Source: a virus (Duplodnaviria; Caudoviricetes). From it: DNA of 64,000 bases. Location: the IMG/VR virus record IMGVR_UViG_3300027759_000044; one strand, written 5' to 3'. A model generated the notes under the pieces. That model did no database searches and was not told the DNA's origin. It was given only the letters and a program-made list of their open reading frames with translations. Positions 11,446 to 19,726 of this stretch are shown in pieces; within the stretch, counting starts at the first letter, position 1; the number at the start of each line of letters is the position of its first letter. Made by a program: the position numbers and the translations under genes.

Positions 11446-11473
11446 AAAAATAGACCCCGAAGGGTCTATTTTT
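11446..11473. terminator. Bidirectional intrinsic terminator
   Basis: AAAAATAGACCC-CGAA-GGGTCTATTTTT between convergent genes. Confidence 0.88.
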
Positions 11474-12074
11474 ACATTACAATTCCATTACCGTTCTTAA
11501 ATCCTACAGTACCACCCTCTGCTTCAATACGTTTTATAACATCTTCAAACAGTATGGGTCTATAGTCTGTATGTTCAACACATACGCAATGATAACGAAC
11601 ATCAATATAATGTCTACTACCACGTTGGTGAAACTCATGTAATGTTTCAACGTGTTTCATTACACGGTTAGCATGTAAGTGCCCGTGAATGTTAACACCA
11701 AATCTTCCCAATGATTCTTCATGTATTGGAATGTGACTTAATATCATTCCATTCATAACATGATAAGCACGTAGTTCACGGAAGTATTCTCTATACTCAT
11801 CATCACGGAAAATATCATGGTTACCACGAATCAATACTTTATCACCGTTTAAGCGACTCATAATCTTTAATGCTTTACGGTTAATGACAACATCGCCCAA
11901 GTGATATACTTTATCCTTAGGTCTAACTGTTTCATTCCAACGCTTAACCATTTCTTCATCCATTTCATCAGGATCAGTCCATGGCCTTAATTTTGTAACA
12001 CCATCGTTACGTGTGAAATGACATACTCCGGAATGCCCGAAGTGTGTGTCACTTGTTAAAAATACTGCGGGCAT
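11472..12074 (-). CDS. Calcineurin-like metallophosphoesterase
   Basis: SDTHFGH, HLGDV, RGNHD, SHIP, NIHGHLH motifs. Confidence 0.92.
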   Translation of the reverse strand: MPAVFLTSDTHFGHSGVCHFTRNDGVTKLRPWTDPDEMDEEMVKRWNETVRPKDKVYHLGDVVINRKALKIMSRLNGDKVLIRGNHDIFRDDEYREYFRELRAYHVMNGMILSHIPIHEESLGRFGVNIHGHLHANRVMKHVETLHEFHQRGSRHYIDVRYHCVCVEHTDYRPILFEDVIKRIEAEGGTVGFKNGNGIVM

Positions 12075-12088
12075 ATAATTCCTTTATT

Positions 12089-12163
12089 TGGCATACCCCC
12101 AAGGATTCGAACCTTGCCTTGCGGTTTTGGAGACCGATGTGCTGCCGCTAACACCAGGGATAC
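12089..12163 (-). tRNA. trnW: tRNA-Trp(CCA)
   Basis: Cloverleaf, loop CTCCAAA, T-loop GGTTCGAATCC, encoded CCA. Confidence 0.9.
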
Positions 12164-12168
12164 ATTGT

Positions 12169-12390
12169 TTACAAATTCTTTCTAATTCGTTTAAGATATT
12201 CACGTCCAACAAGTCCTTGTTCAATTTCTTCTAATGCAGTTACCATTGGCCCTGATTTAGTATTAAGCATAGAACGATGTCCTCGTTTTAATTCTCTTAC
12301 ACGTTGTGAGGCGATAAGAACTAAATCAAAACGATTACCGACCATGAGTGCGGCTTCTTCACTTGTATATCTTGCTCTGCTTTGTGACAT
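12169..12390 (-). CDS. rpoZ: RNA polymerase omega subunit
   Basis: 73 aa from MSQSRARYTSEEAALMVGNRFDLVLIASQRVRELKRG...VTALEEIEQG; matches omega signature NRFDLVLxAxxRARxL...ALxEI. Confidence 0.88.
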   Translation of the reverse strand: MSQSRARYTSEEAALMVGNRFDLVLIASQRVRELKRGHRSMLNTKSGPMVTALEEIEQGLVGREYLKRIRKNL

Positions 12391-12410
12391 AATTTTCCTT
12401 TTAAAAATTT

Positions 12411-12486
12411 TGGTGGGTCGTGACAGGCTCGAACTGCCGACATTCTGCGTGTAAGGCAGACGCTCTACCAACTGAGCTAACGACCC
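12411..12486 (-). tRNA. trnV: tRNA-Val(TAC)
   Basis: Cloverleaf, loop CTTACAC, CCA end. Confidence 0.93.
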
Positions 12487-12491
12487 GATGT

Positions 12492-12671
12492 TTAACCACC
12501 TTGGTTACTATCTTTAACTTCTGTTTGACTAGCAATTCTTTCAAATGCTTCATCTTCTATTTGTTGATCCTCAATCATTCTTGGATCTGGCTTACGAAAG
12601 ATATTATCCCAGTTATTATTAAACGTATTTAAATCTACGCTATATGGTCTAGGAAGACTACCTTTGCTCAT
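12492..12671 (-). CDS. Small hypothetical protein (59 aa, MSKGSLPRP...)
   Basis: Hand-translated; start overlaps upstream stop. Confidence 0.6.
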   Translation of the reverse strand: MSKGSLPRPYSVDLNTFNNNWDNIFRKPDPRMIEDQQIEDEAFERIASQTEVKDSNQGG

Positions 12672-12835
12672 TTGCTATTATCCTTGCGAGAACTTGTACG
12701 TGAATTGCTTTTTTCAATTTCAACAAAACTACGAATAAAAGCTCCACGTTCATGTGCATCACGAATTAGTGTTGCCGCACGTTTAACTGCTTTAGGGATT
12801 TTAACTGCCCTTGAATCATAACCTCTACATGTCAT
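12668..12835 (-). CDS. Small basic hypothetical protein (55 aa, MTCRGYDSRAVKIPK...)
   Basis: Hand-translated; SD GAGGA. Confidence 0.6.
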   Translation of the reverse strand: MTCRGYDSRAVKIPKAVKRAATLIRDAHERGAFIRSFVEIEKSNSRTSSRKDNSK

Positions 12836-12860
12836 ACTATTTCCTCTTTTAAAAAATCAT

Positions 12861-12934
12861 TGGTCTCGGTAGCAGGAATCGAACCTACGCTCGAACGTCC
12901 CAAACGTTCAGTGATACCATTTCACCATACCGAG
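12861..12934 (-). tRNA. trnP: tRNA-Pro(TGG)
   Basis: Anticodon arm GAACG-TTTGGGA-CGTTC, CCA end. Confidence 0.92.
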
Positions 12935-12940
12935 ATAAAC

Positions 12941-13090
12941 TTAACTTGGTATTATATGTGGTATATATGGAACATTACGTGGACCATGTCGCTGTTCAAG
13001 TAGCTTTTTAGCTTCTTGTACATTTGGTGCGTACACTTTGTCCTTTTTATCACCTTCCGGTGTTCTTACTGTTGTTTCATACATTGGCAT
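12941..13090 (-). CDS. Small hypothetical protein (49 aa, MPMYETTVRTPEG...)
   Basis: Hand-translated; SD AGGAG; ends approximate. Confidence 0.55.
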   Translation of the reverse strand: MPMYETTVRTPEGDKKDKVYAPNVQEAKKLLEQRHGPRNVPYIPHIIPS

Positions 13091-13141
13091 ATAATTCTCC
13101 TATTTGGTTACGCCATACGGCACTTAAACTATTTTATTTGG

Positions 13142-13672
13142 TTAATATGCCCAAATAACTCCTGAAAAACGTGTTCCTTTTGTTACTTCTGTCACACCAT
13201 GTCGATATAAAAAGGTAGAAGGGAACAGTAATACATCACCTTGACTTAATTTTATAACTTCATCGTTCATTGTAAAATTTCCACCTTCAAAATCATCATT
13301 AAAAACTAATATCATAGATATAACAGGAATACCATCATCTTTATTTCTTCTAATTAAATCATAGTGAGGTGACATTATAGTACCGACTGAATATTTGTTT
13401 AATCTTAACTCAGAACAAAATGATACTATCATATCCATATTCAATTCTATTAAATATTCCAGCATTGCTTGATGTATGTAAGGGTCTATATAATCAACAT
13501 TATTAAATAATACATCTAATTCTCTATTATGCTGAGGGCCGTATTTATCTGCTCCAGCACTGTACCATGCATGTTGTACCCAATTAGGATGATCTTTATG
13601 TTCTCTAATTACTTTTTCACAAATATCTTTTGGTATAATATTATATATTTTACAATAGTCTTTGATTTCCAT
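13142..13672 (-). CDS. 2OG-Fe(II) oxygenase (prolyl-4-hydroxylase/PKHD-like)
   Basis: HYD...LVFNDDFEGGNF...YRHGVTEVTKGTR facial triad and Arg. Confidence 0.88.
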   Translation of the reverse strand: MEIKDYCKIYNIIPKDICEKVIREHKDHPNWVQHAWYSAGADKYGPQHNRELDVLFNNVDYIDPYIHQAMLEYLIELNMDMIVSFCSELRLNKYSVGTIMSPHYDLIRRNKDDGIPVISMILVFNDDFEGGNFTMNDEVIKLSQGDVLLFPSTFLYRHGVTEVTKGTRFSGVIWAY

Positions 13673-13689
13673 AAGTTCACCTTTAAATT

Positions 13690-13764
13690 TGGATGCGGGG
13701 GACGGATTCGCACCGCCGATCTTCAGGTTATGAGCCTGATGAGTTACTACTTCTCTACCCCGCG
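13690..13764 (-). tRNA. tRNA-fMet(CAT), initiator type
   Basis: CGCGGGG acceptor with C1:A72 mismatch, loop CTCATAA; atypical T-loop TGCGAAT. Confidence 0.85.
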
Positions 13765-13770
13765 CTATCT

Positions 13771-13846
13771 TGGTGGAGGAGACAGGGATCGAACCTGCGA
13801 CCTATTGCTTGCAAAGCAACCGCTCTCCCAACTGAGCTACACCCCC
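13771..13846 (-). tRNA. trnA: tRNA-Ala(TGC)
   Basis: Cloverleaf, loop TTTGCAA, CCA end. Confidence 0.92.
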
Positions 13847-13855
13847 AAATACTTT

Positions 13856-13940
13856 TGGTGCCCTAGGTCGGACTCGAACCGACACATATTTCTACGCCAG
13901 AACCTAAATCTGGTGCGTCTACCAATTTCGCCACCAGGGC
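13856..13940 (-). tRNA. trnL: tRNA-Leu(TAG)
   Basis: Long variable arm, loop TTTAGGT, CCA end. Confidence 0.92.
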
Positions 13941-14000
13941 ATTCATTTCAATACTTATTGTAACATAAAACTATTTAGTTGTCTACTACTTTGGATAACT

Positions 14001-14074
14001 TGGAGCGGGGTAACAGAATCGAACTGTCAGCATTAGCTTGGAAGGCTAAGGTATTACCACTATACGAACCCCGC
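14001..14074 (-). tRNA. trnG: tRNA-Gly(TCC)
   Basis: Loop CTTCCAA, CCA end. Confidence 0.93.
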
Positions 14075-14100
14075 AAAAAAGCCCACAGTATTTAGTGGGC
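14075..14100 (-). terminator. Intrinsic terminator whose loop contains the late promoter core
   Basis: Minus strand GCCCAC-TAAATACT-GTGGGC-TTTTTT immediately 5' of tRNA-Gly. Confidence 0.7.
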
Positions 14101-14122
14101 CCTTTGTCTGTGTGTGAAAGTT

Positions 14123-14362
14123 TTATTTCCTATCAAAGGCCCAGAATAAAACTCCTAGAGCAACAAGACCTACTAGACCTTGACTACCCAATGCTGTCAC
14201 AAACTTTAATACATTACCTAAAATGTCTAAACCTATGAATGGCACTGCCGCTCCGAAAATGATTTGTAAGATTACGCCTACTGCTAATAACTTGATACCT
14301 AAGTCAACTACGTGCCCTAGAAATCCACCAGCAATATCGAATGCGTTATTCATTTTTTCCAT
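14123..14362 (-). CDS. Small membrane protein
   Basis: Hydrophobic helices; SD AAGGA before MEKMNNAF. Confidence 0.75.
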   Translation of the reverse strand: MEKMNNAFDIAGGFLGHVVDLGIKLLAVGVILQIIFGAAVPFIGLDILGNVLKFVTALGSQGLVGLVALGVLFWAFDRK

Positions 14363-14469
14363 GTTTTTGTTTCCTTTCACAAACTAATATTTACCTCTTT
14401 GTGAAGGCTTCAAAGCACATTCTCTTTACATTATTAGACTATTCTTATTACACAATAAGTCTATATATT

Positions 14470-14545
14470 TGGAGTAGGTGACAGGAGTCGAACCTGCATA
14501 GCACGGATTTGCAATCCGCTACCTAACCATTCGGTACACACCTAC
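14470..14545 (-). tRNA. trnC: tRNA-Cys(GCA)
   Basis: Loop TTGCAAA, U73, CCA end. Confidence 0.92.
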
Positions 14546-14550
14546 ATAAA

Positions 14551-14637
14551 AGCATATTGAAACACACTAACTACCTTGGTATGTACTAAAGTTCAATGAA
14601 CCGCTACGACCCTATCTTTAATGTGCTTCAATATGCT
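14551..14637 (-). ncRNA. Hairpin RNA, 20-bp stem + 47-nt loop (element A)
   Basis: AGCATATTGAAGCACATTAA / TTAGTGTGTTTCAATATGCT pair fully on minus strand with two G-U wobbles; 5 nt before tRNA-Cys. Confidence 0.65.
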
Positions 14638-14639
14638 CT

Positions 14640-14832
14640 GCGTCCCCCGGCGGTAATTATAGTACAAAAAGATATGACGCTATCATACCCCTCACACGTA
14701 CCTTCCACCCGCTTCCCGACAGGGACCGTTCTCGCATTGCTAGCGGCCTTTGGGTTTAAAGACTACCACCCGTAGTTGTCACACTACTTCTCATCCTGCG
14801 GGTCACAGTATCCGGAGACACCCGGAACGTTC
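14640..14832 (-). ncRNA. Unidentified GC-rich structured RNA (~190 nt)
   Basis: Hairpins TCCGG/CCGGA, ACTAC/GTAGT, GGTATGAT/GTCATATC (G-U on minus), possible closing CGTTCC/GGGACG. Confidence 0.55.
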
Positions 14833-14847
14833 TTTTATAAATACAGT

Positions 14848-15030
14848 ATGGAACTACAAAACTGTATTGATGTTGTTGAAAAGTTGTTGCGTCAAAACAA
14901 ACGTAATTACAAAGATAGCCACGAACAATTGTTATATGAACGAGGATACCTTACTGGATTACTTGCTAGATTGATGAATGATGACCCTCATATTCTACAT
15001 AAAGTCATAAACAAAACAAATAATCGCTAA
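14848..15030 (+). CDS. Small hypothetical late protein (60 aa)
   Basis: TATAAATA 4 nt before ATG 14848; LYERGYLTGLLARL. Confidence 0.65.
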   Translation: MELQNCIDVVEKLLRQNKRNYKDSHEQLLYERGYLTGLLARLMNDDPHILHKVINKTNNR

Positions 15031-15031
15031 T

Positions 15032-15123
15032 TGGTGGAGACGGTGAGATTCGAACTCACGGTACATATTACTACATACGACAGGTTAGCAACCTGCTGCC
15101 TTAGGCCACTCGGCCACGTCTCC
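15032..15123 (-). tRNA. trnS: tRNA-Ser(GCT)
   Basis: Long variable arm, loop TTGCTAA, CCA end. Confidence 0.92.
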
Positions 15124-15137
15124 TGATAAATACAAAA

Positions 15138-15659
15138 ATGCAACACAATTTCTTTTACAAAAAAATAGGTAACATATCTGATGATTTGCTTTACGGTTTA
15201 CAAAGTGATGCAATATCTGCAACATATAAATCAACTTCAGATTTTTCATCCAATGTATTAACTACCAGTAATAGAGTTAACAGTAAATTACTTATTAAGT
15301 TATTTACTGAGCTAGCTACTGTGTTTAAAATTATAGGTCATATAGGCACTAATTATGCTAAAATGTATCCATTGAGTTATCTCAAAGAACATAGCGACCT
15401 TTCGTCATATGAAAAAGAACCATTGAATTATTCAACTATGGTAAAATTGCAAATCCCTATCATAACAAATGAAAAAGTAGGAATGATGTGGGCACCAACT
15501 CCTAATGAAACTACACTTGTTAACTTTGATATAGGTGGAATTTACATTATCGATAATGTAAGAACTCACTCTGTGGTAAATCTAAGCAATGAATATAGAT
15601 ATAATCTAACCTCTAGATGGAAGGTTGATTCATTACTTGATACATCAATCTTAGAGTAA
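15138..15659 (+). CDS. Asp/Asn beta-hydroxylase-like 2OG oxygenase
   Basis: LKEHSD...KLQIPIITNEK...IDNVRTHSVVNLSNEYRYNL. Confidence 0.75.
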   Translation: MQHNFFYKKIGNISDDLLYGLQSDAISATYKSTSDFSSNVLTTSNRVNSKLLIKLFTELATVFKIIGHIGTNYAKMYPLSYLKEHSDLSSYEKEPLNYSTMVKLQIPIITNEKVGMMWAPTPNETTLVNFDIGGIYIIDNVRTHSVVNLSNEYRYNLTSRWKVDSLLDTSILE

Positions 15660-15662
15660 TAC

Positions 15663-15739
15663 TGGTGCCTCCACCTGGACTCGAACCAGGAACCAACGGA
15701 TTATGAGTCCGCTGCGCTAACCAATTGCGCTATAGAGGC
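15663..15739 (-). tRNA. tRNA-Ile2(CAT, lysidine type)
   Basis: Anticodon arm GCGGA-CTCATAA-TCCGT and overall similarity to bacterial Ile2; Met identity not excluded. Confidence 0.78.
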
Positions 15740-15748
15740 ATCATTCTT

Positions 15749-15833
15749 TGGTGCGAGTGCCCGGAATCGAACCGGGATGCCGTTAAGCGAGAGATTTTAA
15801 GTCTCTTGTGTCTACCTATTTCACCACACTCGC
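15749..15833 (-). tRNA. trnL: tRNA-Leu(TAA)
   Basis: Loop CTTAAAA, long variable arm, CCA end. Confidence 0.93.
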
Positions 15834-15846
15834 AAATCATGTTATC

Positions 15847-15875
15847 ATTATATATCAATCAATGATTGTAGTCAA
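15847..15875 (-). promoter_or_regulatory. Internal sigma70 promoter in tRNA cluster
   Basis: TTGACT-17 nt-TATAAT just upstream of tRNA-Leu(TAA). Confidence 0.7.
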
Positions 15876-15894
15876 ATATTATGGTTAACTAACT

Positions 15895-15969
15895 TGGCGG
15901 TCCCAGCGGGTAACGATCCCGCTCCTCATGCGTGACAGGCATGTATGCGTCCATGAACACTTTGAGACC
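15895..15969 (-). tRNA. trnD: tRNA-Asp(GTC)
   Basis: Loop CTGTCAC, G73, CCA end; atypical T-loop ATCGTTA. Confidence 0.88.
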
Positions 15970-15978
15970 TAATACTGA

Positions 15979-16037
15979 ATAGGACACCCCTTTGGCCTAG
16001 GTCATTTAAGAGTACGCCTGCCCAGCGACTCTCCTAT
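15979..16037 (-). ncRNA. Possible hairpin RNA, 6-bp stem + 47-nt loop (element B)
   Basis: ATAGGA/TCCTAT closing pair, GC-rich interior with GAGT-CGC/GCG-TACTC hairpin; between tRNA-Tyr and tRNA-Asp. Confidence 0.35.
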
Positions 16038-16042
16038 ATTCT

Positions 16043-16127
16043 TGGTGGAGATTACTGGGATCGAACCAGTCGTGCTATAAAGCGGCGGATTTACAATCCA
16101 CTGCATCACCATTGATGCTTCATCTCC
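16043..16127 (-). tRNA. trnY: tRNA-Tyr(GTA)
   Basis: Loop TTGTAAA, long variable arm, CCA end. Confidence 0.92.
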
Positions 16128-16131
16128 GAGA

Positions 16132-16194
16132 TGAGTTACGGTTGCAAGACCTAGTGTCTCATTACTGAGAGAAGTATCAGGGCGATGTAACTCA
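16132..16194 (-). ncRNA. Hairpin RNA, 8-bp stem + 47-nt loop (element C)
   Basis: TGAGTTAC/GTAACTCA; central TCTCA-GTAA-TGAGA GNRA hairpin; 4 nt before tRNA-Tyr. Confidence 0.55.
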
Positions 16195-16199
16195 AAAAA

Positions 16200-16402
16200 T
16201 TAGTATAAGCTACTTGTTTCCACACAAGCCCTTAATTGAGCAGTTACTCTGTCCATCTCCATTTATTCAAAGTCTGTGTGCAGTTGAGATTCTGCCTATC
16301 AGAGCCTGCGAGGGTATTTTTAATCCTCACGCTAACGGTTTTCTGCCACCGGATCTCTATCGCTAATCAAACGCTATTTTAACGAAAATAGTAACGGGAT
16401 AC
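16200..16402 (-). ncRNA. Unidentified structured RNA (~200 nt)
   Basis: Hairpins CTATTTT/AAAATAG, GCGTGAGG/CCCTCGC, GAG-TAACTG-CTC, CTTGT/ACAAG; no ORF. Confidence 0.45.
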
Positions 16403-16478
16403 TGGAGCTCGGTACGGGATTCGAACCCGTGTGAATGCCGTGAAAGGGCACTATCCTAGGCCGCTAGATGAACCGAGC
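16403..16478 (-). tRNA. trnE: tRNA-Glu(TTC)
   Basis: Loop CTTTCAC, CCA end. Confidence 0.92.
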
Positions 16479-16480
16479 AA

Positions 16481-16694
16481 ACTATATGAAAAAACATTAA
16501 GGAACGTAAACTGTATCTACCAGTACCGTCTACTGGATCGTTGTTTCTGTCATTACTGCCTAACTTCCCGTCACGTTAAACAATATTGCTATTGTAGATA
16601 CGCTTCTTGCACCCTATGCGACCCAGTCCGTCAACTGGCTGACCCCATAGACCTACCTAACGGATTAGGTTACCTTAATGTATTTTCATATAGT
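16481..16694 (-). ncRNA. Multibranch RNA closed by a 22-bp stem (214 nt)
   Basis: ACTATATGAAAATACATTAAGG pairs with CCTTAATGTTTTTTCATATAGT (1 mismatch); interior GTATCTAC/GTAGATAC, two CCAGT/ACTGG hairpins, ACCTAA-TCCG-TTAGGT; 2 nt before tRNA-Glu. Confidence 0.65.
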
Positions 16695-16731
16695 CCCTGT
16701 AACTTAAACAGGGCTATATGATAACTCAGAA

Positions 16732-16773
16732 TTTTAAAGAACTCGGTTGAGTAGTACGATGACTTTTCTCAAC
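16732..16773 (-). promoter_or_regulatory. rrn-like boxB hairpin + boxA antitermination signal
   Basis: GTTGAG/CTCAAC hairpin followed by AGTTCTTTAAAA just after promoter 16784-16812. Confidence 0.5.
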
Positions 16774-16783
16774 TCATGCTATG

Positions 16784-16812
16784 ATTGTAGCACAACTTCC
16801 ATTTATTGTCAA
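16784..16812 (-). promoter_or_regulatory. sigma70 promoter (tandem P2)
   Basis: TTGACA-17 nt-TACAAT. Confidence 0.8.
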
Positions 16813-16864
16813 ATTCTTTCGTTTCTCTGTTTCCCAAGAACTTGTTCAATCAATCTATGTCTAG

Positions 16865-16893
16865 AGTATAGCAGATTGAGGATTTATTGTCAA
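16865..16893 (-). promoter_or_regulatory. sigma70 promoter (tandem P1)
   Basis: TTGACA-17 nt-TATACT. Confidence 0.8.
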
Positions 16894-16947
16894 ATTTACT
16901 ATTTTAGTACTTAATACTACATAAAATATGTGATGATAAATATTCTT

Positions 16948-17544
16948 ATGACAACCTCCCTATATGATGATTTAGAATTACCAAAAACTTGCACCTCTGA
17001 AGAAATCAAACAAAAATACAGAATCTTAGCACAATTACATCATCCCGATAAGGGAGGGGATGTGGAAAAGTTCAAACGAATGAAATTGGCATATGAAGTA
17101 TTAAGTGACCCAATTAAACGTGAACACTATGATTCTACCGGTGATCATTATAATGATATTAATCTTGACAGTGAAGTTATGGGCAGGCTAGCTGTTATGC
17201 TTTCACAATTTGTTCAACATATCAATCCAGAGATTGATGATTTAATATTAAAAATGCGAATTGAAATCCGTGCATTACAACAACTGACAACAAATGCTAT
17301 TGTAGAATGTAACAATCTAATAGACAAGATGAATATTATTTCTAAGAAGATTAAATTAAAAAAAGAGGGTGAGAACTTATTAAAGTCTGTAGTTGATAAA
17401 AAAATCTTAGGACTGCATACTGAAATAATTAACCACAAAAGAGGATTAATAGTTTTTGCTAGAATGCTAGAAGTATTAGAGGATTATCATTTTAGTAGTG
17501 ACGAATGGAAACTACTACTAGAAAATTTTGATGGTCCAGCGTAG
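16948..17544 (+). CDS. J-domain (DnaJ-like) protein
   Basis: LYDDLEL...EEIKQKYRILAQLHHPDKGGDVEKFKRMKLAYEVLSDP; HPD motif; start reassigned from TAAATA+5 nt. Confidence 0.9.
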   Translation: MTTSLYDDLELPKTCTSEEIKQKYRILAQLHHPDKGGDVEKFKRMKLAYEVLSDPIKREHYDSTGDHYNDINLDSEVMGRLAVMLSQFVQHINPEIDDLILKMRIEIRALQQLTTNAIVECNNLIDKMNIISKKIKLKKEGENLLKSVVDKKILGLHTEIINHKRGLIVFARMLEVLEDYHFSSDEWKLLLENFDGPA

Positions 17545-17606
17545 AGGAATCGAACCTCTATTGATAGCTTAGAAGGCTACTGTATTATCCATTATACTAA
17601 CGCCAG
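17532..17606 (-). tRNA. trnR: tRNA-Arg(TCT)
   Basis: Loop CTTCTAA, CCA end; overlaps 3' end of J-domain CDS in antisense. Confidence 0.92.
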
Positions 17607-17621
17607 AGGTTTTAATTTATT

Positions 17622-17697
17622 TGGCTCCCCTACGTGGGCTCGAACCACGGACATTTTGATTAACAGTCAAACGCTCTACCGACTGAGCTATAGGAGA
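17622..17697 (-). tRNA. trnN: tRNA-Asn(GTT)
   Basis: Loop CTGTTAA, CCA end. Confidence 0.93.
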
Positions 17698-17704
17698 ATA
17701 TGTT

Positions 17705-17780
<76 letters not shown>

Positions 17781-17806
17781 GACTTTTTATTTAATAGTAT
17801 TATACA

Positions 17807-18367
17807 CTAACTTAATAAAATTCTACTATGTTTTGGAACACCTGCTAACAAATATTCCATTTGGTCAGCAAGTATTGTTCTATGTTGTAATATCATATTT
17901 TCATAGTGATTAGGGACATAAGGTGTGTATAGTAATTCCATACGTACTTCTTTCAAACTCTTATGACCTTTTTTACTGTTACAATCTTTACAAGCTGTAA
18001 CAACATTCATCCAAGTGTTTTCACCACCTTTGCTCCGAGGAACAATGTGGTCACGACTTAGTAGATGATAGTTTGGAAACTGTTCCCCGCAATAAGCACA
18101 TACATGTCTATCACGACCAAACAATGTTTTATTGGTTAGTGCCACACATGAATGTTTGTATGGATTGAATCCATGACCTTTTATGGCAATAATGCTACTA
18201 GCTTCTAAGTAACTTAATGTGCCGTCATTTTGTATGCCACCACGATATTTAGCCACAATATTACCCATTGACCATGCTATGGCATCTTTTGCTTTATAGG
18301 TAATTGCGTCATCATTTGATATCCATTGCCGGGGAACTCCCGAGATATCTAGTGCTAGAACAGCCAT
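17807..18367 (-). CDS. HNH endonuclease (McrA/HNH_5-like)
   Basis: RDRHVCAYCG...DHIVPRSKGG...NVVTACKDCNSKKG; SD GGAG before MAVLALD. Confidence 0.9.
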   Translation of the reverse strand: MAVLALDISGVPRQWISNDDAITYKAKDAIAWSMGNIVAKYRGGIQNDGTLSYLEASSIIAIKGHGFNPYKHSCVALTNKTLFGRDRHVCAYCGEQFPNYHLLSRDHIVPRSKGGENTWMNVVTACKDCNSKKGHKSLKEVRMELLYTPYVPNHYENMILQHRTILADQMEYLLAGVPKHSRILLS

Positions 18368-18414
18368 GTAGTACTCCTTTTCTGTTATTATCACTATATG
18401 TATTTAATGCCGAG

Positions 18415-18489
18415 TGGCGGGTCCTGCAGGAATTGAACCCACATCCCGAAGTTCGAAGCATCGTATTCTATCCATTGAACTAAGGACCC
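18415..18489 (-). tRNA. trnR: tRNA-Arg(TCG)
   Basis: Loop CTTCGAA, CCA end. Confidence 0.88.
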
Positions 18490-18649
18490 GATTAAAGAGG
18501 GAGCCTAGCTATCTTATTGTTAGTAAGCCTCGCTAGATTGTCTCGTATAGGCAAGTTTATACACCTATCAATCATACTATAGTGTCATCACAGTTAACCC
18601 CACTGTGACTAGATTGACAGGGACTCAAACCTATCGTCTATCCCATAAC
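18490..18649 (-). ncRNA. Possible structured RNA between tRNA-Gln and tRNA-Arg(TCG)
   Basis: TCACAGT/ACTGTGA and TAGG/CCTA hairpins, duplicated CAATCTAG; no ORF. Confidence 0.35.
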
Positions 18650-18727
18650 TGGCACCCCCTCAAGGATTCGAACCTCAGAATGTCGGAATCAAAATCCGAT
18701 GCCTTAGACCAACTTGGCGAAGGGGGT
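18650..18727 (-). tRNA. trnQ: tRNA-Gln(TTG)
   Basis: Arm TCGGA-TTTTGAT-TCCGA, CCA end. Confidence 0.9.
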
Positions 18728-18732
18728 AAATT

Positions 18733-18806
18733 TGGTACCCAGTAGAGGTAACGCTCCTCTGATTCACCCTTATCAGGGGTGTGTTATACTTTTTAACTAA
18801 CCGGGC
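18733..18806 (-). tRNA. trnI: tRNA-Ile(GAT), atypical D and T loops
   Basis: Arm CACCC-CTGATAA-GGGTG; D-loop lacks GG; T-loop AGCGTTA. Confidence 0.82.
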
Positions 18807-18811
18807 ATGTT

Positions 18812-18886
18812 TGGTGGATGTAAGTAGATTTGAACTACTGACCTATTCCGTATGAAGGAATTGCACTACCGCTGTGCTATACATCC
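18812..18886 (-). tRNA. tRNA-Met(CAT), elongator type
   Basis: Arm ATTCC-TTCATAC-GGAAT, paired 1:72. Confidence 0.85.
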
Positions 18887-18965
18887 TGGTACCCCTGATC
18901 GGGTTTGAACCGACAACTGACGCTCTCTCTTGAAGAACCGACTTTTCCTATTTGTCTACAGGGGC
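18887..18965 (-). tRNA. Atypical tRNA-Leu-like gene (anticodon AAG or CAA depending on register)
   Basis: Normal acceptor/D/T arms and CCA; arm GTTCT-TCAAGAG-AGAGC puts C at 33; short variable region. Confidence 0.55.
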
Positions 18966-18971
18966 ATTGAT

Positions 18972-19048
18972 TGGGGTGCTTGATGGGATTCGAACCCACG
19001 TATATCGGAATCACAATCCGAGGTCTTAACCGCTTGACGACAAGCACC
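18972..19048 (-). tRNA. trnH: tRNA-His(GTG)
   Basis: Loop TTGTGAT, G-1:C73, CCA end. Confidence 0.93.
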
Positions 19049-19054
19049 GTGTAT

Positions 19055-19144
19055 TGGTAGAAACGGTGAGATTCGAACTCACGGACCCTTTCGGATCGAC
19101 AGTTTTCAAGACTGTTGCCATAAACCTGACTCGACCACGTTTCC
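19055..19144 (-). tRNA. trnS: tRNA-Ser(TGA)
   Basis: Loop CTTGAAA, long variable arm. Confidence 0.92.
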
Positions 19145-19150
19145 ATATTA

Positions 19151-19226
19151 TGGTGGGACCAGGGCGGTTCGAACGCCCGACCAACGGATTAAAAGTCCGC
19201 TGCTCTACCGACTGAGCTATGGTCCC
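19151..19226 (-). tRNA. trnK: tRNA-Lys(TTT)
   Basis: Loop CTTTTAA, CCA end. Confidence 0.93.
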
Positions 19227-19232
19227 GTATAT

Positions 19233-19309
19233 TGGTGCGACCGGAAGGACTTGAACCTCCGACTCCCTATTTCGTAGACAGGTACTCTAATCCACTGAGT
19301 TACGGCCGC
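19233..19309 (-). tRNA. trnR: tRNA-Arg(ACG)
   Basis: Loop CTACGAA, CCA end. Confidence 0.92.
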
Positions 19310-19390
19310 ATTCTAAAACACACATAGTACACCCTAGTCAACAGGGTTGCCCTCTTGGCCTTATTTTCCACGATGTATGTTTTAGAATGC
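19308..19390 (-). ncRNA. Hairpin RNA, 18-bp stem + 47-nt loop (element D)
   Basis: GCATTCTAAAACATACAT / ATGTGTGTTTTAGAATGC (one G-U on minus); overlaps first 2 nt of tRNA-Arg(ACG). Confidence 0.65.
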
Positions 19391-19536
19391 CGTGTATCTC
19401 TACACGACATGATAGGGTCAATACCCTACCCAGTAGTCTTACTAACATGTTGTCTCCATGCTTTCATGTATACTGTCCGCCCATTCTATACATTTAACGT
19501 TGTATTACGGCTCTCGTTGCCTATTCACGTTATCTA
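19391..19536 (-). ncRNA. Possible structured RNA (~145 nt)
   Basis: Hairpins CGTGTA-GAGA-TACACG, GGTAGGGT-ATTG-ACCCTATC, TACA/TGTA, GGC/GCC; no ORF. Confidence 0.45.
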
Positions 19537-19704
19537 TCAAGCAATACCAGCTAGCTTGTTAGCTTTCTTGGTAGCCTCTTGAAAGACTTTAGCACGTTGA
19601 AGTTTATTTTCTATCAACTGTGCTACTTGTTCCTTAGTCAAAACATGATTGCTAAACCAATCTTGTTTGTTTTCAGAAGTTTTGTATTCTATCTGTTCAT
19701 CCAT
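19537..19704 (-). CDS. Small hypothetical protein (55 aa, MDEQIEYKTS...)
   Basis: Hand-translated; first ORF after the attenuator; SD GAGG about 12 nt upstream. Confidence 0.45.
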   Translation of the reverse strand: MDEQIEYKTSENKQDWFSNHVLTKEQVAQLIENKLQRAKVFQEATKKANKLAGIA

Positions 19705-19726
19705 TTCTTGTCAAATCCTCTCTGTA

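Follow-up and report, generated by a model that had tools for sequence, protein, structure and literature searches.

Three long hairpins that directly precede tRNA genes in a stretch of phage DNA (Duplodnaviria; Caudoviricetes; IMG/VR record IMGVR_UViG_3300027759_000044; 64,000 nucleotides [nt], hereafter the window) are, as judged from their sequences, members of a widespread family of phage cassettes, in which a conserved AU-rich closing helix of ~20-22 base pairs (bp) surrounds interchangeable small RNAs. These cassettes occur in the tRNA-array transcripts of large uncultivated freshwater phages and are apparently undescribed; our literature searches, which covered few of the older T4 papers, returned no description of them. 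An earlier note on this DNA had grouped four elements, A to D, into one family of hairpin RNAs with exactly 47-nt loops, each directly 5' of a tRNA. The placement was confirmed, in that A, B, C, and D lie directly upstream of the minus-strand genes for tRNA-Cys, tRNA-Asp, tRNA-Tyr, and tRNA-Arg(ACG), respectively, ~0-5 nt away or, for D, with an overlap of 2 nt. The single family was not: (i) A and D share their closing helix with a third element, which was absent from the earlier list; (ii) C is a separate, conserved, and covarying small-RNA family that exactly fills tRNA spacers; and (iii) B is a conserved spacer without demonstrable structure (Table 1). For the helices of A, D, and the third element, together with this assignment of C and B, we tentatively favor, with a probability of about 45%, a role as a double-strand processing stalk of the RNase III type.

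Table 1. Positions of the RNA elements, the tRNA next to element A, and the promoter-like sites in the window
Feature	Position	Strand	Properties
Element A	14549..14639	-	closing helix of 22 bp (14618-14639 with 14549-14570); the 47 nt inside form an irregular hairpin
Element D	19308..19390	-	arms of 21 nt separated by 41 nt; as a gapless helix, 18 bp enclosing 47 nt
Third closing-helix element	16479..16696	-	~24-bp helix of the A type, closes a ~170-190-nt RNA; abuts tRNA-Glu (ends at 0)
Element C, three-helix motif	16128..16198	-	P1 (16187-16194 with 16132-16139); invariant P2; P3 capped by a GUAA loop
Element B, spacer between tRNA-Tyr and tRNA-Asp	15970..16045	-	76 nt, near-invariant; no significant fold
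X1, ~200-nt noncoding RNA	14634..14832	-	covariation
tRNA-Cys(GCA)	14470..14545	-	RNase P cleavage at its 5' end would generate the 3' end of element A
Sigma-70-like promoter, 11/12 matches	19686..19714	-	consensus match only; ~290 nt upstream of D
Tandem sigma-70-like promoters at 16893/16812, 11/12 matches each	16784..16893	-	consensus matches only

An unseeded scan covered every tRNA in the window and in 129 loci for a gapless helix ending at positions -8 to +2 of the tRNA. Helices of at least 16 bp were found at the 5' ends of 109 of 1721 tRNAs, as against 13 of 1622 in a mirrored control, which agrees with the earlier proposal of RNA-level structures so placed that tRNA processing would define their ends. 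Two modes were seen in helix length, one at 7-9 bp, as given by chance, and the other at 21-22 bp; the 89 distinct stem-closed elements recovered before tRNAs enclose 5-404 nt. The helices had been chosen by Watson-Crick seeds, which are strand-symmetric; on the tRNA strand, isolated G-U pairs numbered 51 and A-C mismatches 10. This excess indicates that selection acts on the RNA of the tRNA strand, the strand for which the earlier note had argued from its G-U pairs. The arms average 71% A+U, and no intrinsic terminator (a G+C-rich stem followed by a U run) was listed among A to D.

Across the loci, the arms form a continuum around an AAACACA/UGUGUUU core; often, the ACCA of the preceding tRNA is also the start of the 5' arm, and UGGU ends the 3' arm right before the next tRNA. 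This helix sequence, with its ACAC/GUGU center and its ACCA...UGGU ends, is conserved across >100 phages. Whereas the stem sequences had previously been taken as unrelated, the 3' arms of A and D are identical at 13 of 16 positions, a level reached by 10 of 2000 shuffles, and the arms of A and of the third element are identical at 16-17 of 22. A helix of ~18-27 bp with its 3' strand ending at the 5' end of the tRNA is present in A (22 bp, not the 20 bp first given), in D (18-21 bp), and at 16479-16696, and is missing from B (6-bp stem) and C (8-bp stem). The same helix recurs with unrelated cargo, that of the A type in L041, L063, and L108, and that of the D type in L020, L032, L048, L103, and L127 (relatives are cited by locus number), and it is conserved more than the cargo that it encloses. 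Some helices carry just 5-30 nt of cargo, so the helix itself must carry function. Longer cargoes form families of 83-84, 113-118, 158-162, and 170-196 nt, each conserved together with a covarying closing helix. The first three of these, found in L008, L011, L036, L053, and others, have their own covarying helices of ~22 bp and precede tRNA-Glu, Lys, Asp, Cys, or Met.

Loop length was examined in the same relatives. At the earlier stem limits, each of the four elements does enclose 47 nt (14571-14617, 15985-16031, 16140-16186, and 19326-19372), and the arithmetic was right, but the count depends in D on where the stem is cut and varies among relatives. Stems of the A type enclose 31 nt in L063, ~37 nt in L108, 48 nt in L013 and L020, and 60 nt in L041, and a 27-bp-stem variant (L009 and L105) encloses 36 nt. 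The D-type stem (GCAUUCUAAAACA... / ...UGUUUUAGAAUGC) encloses 27 nt in L048 and L127, 37 nt in L103, 38 nt in L032, 39-41 nt in L021 and L014, and 54 nt in L020, and the inner length of the C family is 43-47 nt. Among the 89 elements, the sole pile-up at 47 nt consists of homologues of A itself. The 47-nt count common to the four elements is a coincidence; in A and D the stem is constant and the loop is not. The idea of a 47-nt ruler is hereby removed for these elements, and the premise of constant geometry fails by the test that the earlier note had set for itself. The loop arms, described as unpaired, are paired in C, where they form the invariant helix P2, and in A as well. CUAGG, put forward as a shared motif, is not enriched: of 28 independent cargo clusters, 3 contain it, a count equaled or exceeded in 376 of 2000 shuffles.

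Compared with shuffled sequences on the minus strand, the hairpins claimed for A, D, and C proved real, and that of B did not. Element A folds at -35.5 kcal/mol (z score of -7.6); 3 nt separate it from tRNA-Cys, and its 5' arm starts within the conserved 3' tail (AGAGCA) of X1. Compensatory changes are seen at 20 of the 31 pairs predicted for X1, which has no match in Rfam; a 20-mer of X1 occurs in >120 IMG/VR contigs, sized up to 524 kilobases (kb). The conservation of X1 ends at ...GCAGAGCA, after which many relatives go directly into a tRNA, including tRNA-Cys in L045 and L035, where the site that A occupies between X1 and the orthologous tRNA-Cys is empty. Because the X1 core stops before A and such direct X1-tRNA junctions exist, A is an optional insert or appendage outside the conserved core of X1. 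Element A is present in about 40 loci (a 20-mer from its arm, in 21 IMG/VR contigs), and its cargo is conserved in several contexts, after X1 or a tRNA and before tRNA-Cys, Ala, or Val. In L112, where a tRNA takes the place of X1 ahead of cargo A, the outer pairs differ in compensating fashion, AGCA/UGCU being replaced by ACCA/UGGU. As a separate observation, some relatives have a 40-56-nt insert in X1 after GGGUGGU.

Element D folds at -29.5 kcal/mol (z score of -4.8), and its 3' arm takes in the first 2 nt of tRNA-Arg(ACG), thereby ending at +2. It is the first element of the predicted array transcript and is preceded by a leader hairpin, not by a tRNA; a 5' arm starting at the 3' end of an upstream RNA is seen in A and is inapplicable to D. 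The same D helix stands behind a homologous upstream leader in L020, where it holds an unrelated 54-nt cargo and ~0.6 kb of extra DNA separates it from tRNA-Arg. The leader itself (19391-19540, minus strand) consists of five hairpins in series between the 19714 promoter and D, has a z score of -5.8 when folded together with D, and is conserved in L014, L021, L025, and L020. A 55-codon open reading frame (ORF; 19537-19704) overlaps the promoter-like site.

Element C ends 4 nt before tRNA-Tyr and folds at -16.5 kcal/mol (z score of -2.8). The structure proposed for its family has a P1 of 9 bp, a P2 of 2+4 bp, and a P3 of 3-5 bp with a GNRA or UUCG cap; the GNRA loop first noticed in the window is real and is kept in relatives in one of these two forms. 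Free covariation marks P1 and P3; P2 is invariant, as are the internal loops (AUCGCC, ACUUC, CACUAG, and GCAACC), and the window copy has both the P1-P2-P3 hairpin and the core (AUCGCC..ACUUC / CACUAG..GCAACC). Its 3' signature was found in 74 IMG/VR contigs with 43 distinct variants; 97.5% of cells are paired, as against 33-40% when the structure is slid, and 12 of 20 pairs are compensatory. A covariance model of C found exactly one copy in the window (16127-16198, 88.6 bits, E value of 3e-25) and gave no score for A, B, or D. In 100 loci retrieved for purposes unrelated to C, the model found a single copy in each of 46, and in these 97.1% of cells were paired and 13 of 20 pairs were compensatory. 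Of 47 contexts, 29 have a tRNA ending 0-6 nt ahead of C; on the other side, a tRNA (27 contexts) or X1 (6 contexts) follows at 2-7 nt. C also shows a clean presence/absence difference between relatives. It has no match in Rfam, and prokaryote genomes (596 Gb) yielded 3 exact pattern matches, without the rest of the motif and without tRNAs, where ~17 were expected by chance. A core this invariant points to a specific partner that C binds or to a tertiary fold, and makes C a well-defined RNA amenable to testing. Between tRNA-Glu and C lies X2 (16196-16402, minus strand), a ~205-nt noncoding block present in about 30 loci and 97-98% identical in L005, L007, and L008, the single-sequence fold of which is not significant (z score of -0.41).

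Element B folds no better than shuffles (-19.4 kcal/mol, z score of -0.68, 46 of 200 shuffles as good), and its stem of 6 bp is no longer than chance supplies when the best helix at each tRNA 5' end is taken. Relatives have or lack B as a unit (it is missing from L005, L008, L013, and L020), and its sequence varies very little. A reading of B as a degenerate C motif was rejected, as the C model gives no match.

RNase III requires about two turns of double-stranded RNA, and a long near-perfect helix is its classical substrate; the second length mode of the closing helices corresponds to such a substrate (~20 bp or more of regular double-stranded RNA). In the processing reading, which the earlier note had named as its own alternative, the ~21-22-bp AU-rich helix would pair the 3' tail of the upstream RNA (ACCA of a tRNA or AGCA of X1) with the leader of the next tRNA. 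RNase P is hampered when a 5' leader is paired with other sequence. As long as the closing helix stands, sequestering both the upstream CCA end and the downstream leader, normal maturation of the tRNAs should be impeded. The host RNase III would cut the two-turn helix, as in rRNA operons and T7 early RNA, which would (i) free the upstream CCA end and the downstream leader for normal maturation and (ii) release the cargo as a stem-capped hairpin RNA. The helices with 5-30 nt of cargo, where the helix is what matters, favor this reading.

The likeness to RNase III stalks (the 16S/23S rRNA flanks and sites R1.1-R5 of T7 early RNA) lies in a long near-perfect helix built from the flanks of the enclosed RNA. 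Further points of likeness are a predicted polycistronic stable-RNA transcript with tRNAs, a length of ~two turns, a register with mature ends, and, in the window, a boxA-like GUUCUUUAAAA after tandem promoters. Unlike in the rRNA and T7 stalks, the cassette cargo is small and interchangeable (5-400 nt; not rRNA or mRNA), and the sequence of the helix is itself conserved.

Several observations weigh against an RNase III stalk. The RNA data are assembled contigs, which are blind to RNA ends, and cleavage is thus a matter of inference. A search of five near-complete relatives for RNase III and RtcB genes found neither, so that a host enzyme must be assumed. The helix is kept in sequence (ACAC/GUGU core) and not in pairing alone, for which RNase III is not the obvious explanation and which may point to a factor of greater specificity or to arm-to-arm recombination. 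Moreover, cargo conservation in A and D, like the invariant core of C, speaks for functions beyond what a stalk model covers, and the closing stem of C, at 8-9 bp, cannot be an RNase III site.

It is possible, if less probable, that the helix remains uncut and serves as an end clamp, shielding both ends of the cargo from exonucleases after RNase P cleavage and upstream 3' maturation; this would yield stable, stem-capped small RNAs with functional variable interiors, as in Y RNAs, 6S RNA, and 4.5S RNA. The exact register of the helix with neighboring mature ends, the cargo families conserved with covarying closing helices, and the persistence of cargo A in different contexts would all fit a clamp. 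However, the lengths cluster at 21-22 bp, where 6-10 bp would already make a clamp; a cargo of 5-30 nt offers nothing to protect; and the helix is more conserved than the cargo. A perfect 22-bp double-stranded RNA is, in addition, expected to be cut in any host containing RNase III. The YrlA Y RNAs (RF02553) of bacteria and phages are likewise modular, with a long end-to-end stem and a variable effector module, and these RNAs are often phage-borne and lie beside a tRNA-like sequence, features shared with the cassettes. Unlike in YrlA, no bulged helix of the Ro type was seen, and no TROVE/Ro60 partner gene was found in the five near-complete relatives, which also counts against a clamp; matches to RF02553 in the window scored 18.8-28.2 bits against a 69-bit threshold, all on tRNAs and none covering A to D. 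The earlier note had recommended a search against Rfam; in Rfam 15, whose families include small ribozymes, tRNA-like RNAs, and riboswitches, only tRNA reached the gathering threshold, and the remaining matches, up to an E value of 5, were tRNA look-alikes, leaving A to D uncovered.

Less probable still is a cassette that operates at the DNA level, the inverted repeats being ends of a mobile element or recombination sites that shuffle cargo, with RNA folding secondary. Miniature inverted-repeat transposable elements and integron attC sites likewise have inverted repeats around variable inserts with presence/absence polymorphism, and clean presence/absence between relatives is seen here for A, B, and C. 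The unrelated cargo within the same arms, the occurrence of cargo A after X1 or a tRNA and before three different tRNAs, and the repetition of the arms within one genome point in the same direction. Nonetheless, the strand bias of the isolated G-U pairs is not expected of a hairpin in DNA or of a protein site with symmetry, and, together with the register with RNA ends, it points to selection on RNA; in L112 the outer pairs are adapted to the mature end of the upstream RNA. Filled and empty A sites, compared by eye, show no clean target-site duplication, and no transposase, integrase, or other recombinase lies nearby. A DNA-level role is disfavored by the strand bias, yet it may explain the exchange of cargo.

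An equally improbable reading treats the conserved helix (ACCA-UAUA-AAACACA / UGUGUUU-UAUA-UGGU) as the loading or excision site of a dedicated factor that would make a library of dozens to hundreds of small effector RNAs, with C as a second, independent effector or a ligand- or protein-binding RNA; if true, this would be a phage-specific system for small-RNA production. The earlier idea of a guide or decoy family with a fixed 47-nt loop and two free arms is very improbable, for although all four elements count 47 nt at the earlier stem limits and the internal loops of C are invariant, the loop length varies within every family, the arms are paired, B does not fold, the C model misses A, B, and D, CUAGG is not enriched, and the interiors of A to D have no complementarity in the 64-kb window beyond that of shuffles.

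The stable RNAs C and D (species 1 and 2) of phage T4 are small non-tRNA RNAs that are co-transcribed with the phage tRNAs and released by the tRNA-processing machinery. The cassettes resemble them as small non-tRNA RNAs in a phage tRNA cluster; to our knowledge, the T4 RNAs do not share one closing helix with exchangeable interiors. In large uncultivated freshwater phages, hundreds of bases of the tRNA operons are uncatalogued non-tRNA RNAs. If the stem is a processing or packaging device, this would explain how new RNAs can be added to an existing tRNA-maturation pathway, and, if it is a common device, one helix would be a simple handle for finding all such RNAs.

The array comprises 26 tRNA genes, all on the minus strand (12089-19309; ARAGORN and Rfam), of which tRNA-Tyr (16046-16127) was detected by Rfam only and missed by ARAGORN. 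The set covers 19 amino acids and is without Phe; the relative L020 has a tRNA-Phe(GAA) between His and Leu. At 42-50% G+C, the noncoding spacers exceed the ORFs (~31%), and their minus strand is rich in G. The DNA of the window was found again in freshwater metagenomes. Among isolate phages in INPHARED, near-mode matches to the window were at tRNAs only, distant-mode searches with X1 plus A and with C plus X2 gave no match, and a neighboring 376-amino-acid protein had none.

The promoter at 19686..19714 is likely, as a consensus match, the start of a transcript with D and the block from tRNA-Arg to Arg(TCG), and the tandem promoters precede the third element, tRNA-Glu, X2, C, tRNA-Tyr, B, and tRNA-Asp. 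RNA contigs from four metatranscriptomes, which as assemblies carry no information on RNA ends, cover the tRNAs, X1, and X2 and bridge B to Tyr and Tyr through C to X2; their cover over D is low and not usable as evidence. The promoter placement, the lack of a terminator among A to D, and the bridging contigs fit a polycistronic RNA. As separate observations, RNA-contig depth was high over X1 (4489 at 14714, run X17) and reached 2338 at 16284 in X2 (run X18). After the tandem promoters, the segment at 16723-16790 (minus strand) has a hairpin followed by the boxA-like sequence, at about 16731-16742, an arrangement like the boxB-boxA antitermination signals of rRNA operons.

The minus-strand array is broken up by plus-strand ORFs at 14849-15030 and 15138-15659. 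In L011-type relatives, tRNA-Ser(GCU) directly adjoins X1, which identifies the ORF at 14849-15030 as an insertion in this phage. Also within the array are a plus-strand ORF with a DnaJ domain (16930-17544) and a minus-strand HNH endonuclease gene (17807-18394), the latter kept in ~17 loci. Beside tRNA-Trp, a minus-strand gene for a calcineurin-like phosphoesterase (11472-12074) is kept in ~35 loci, and its product could be an RNA-end-healing enzyme.

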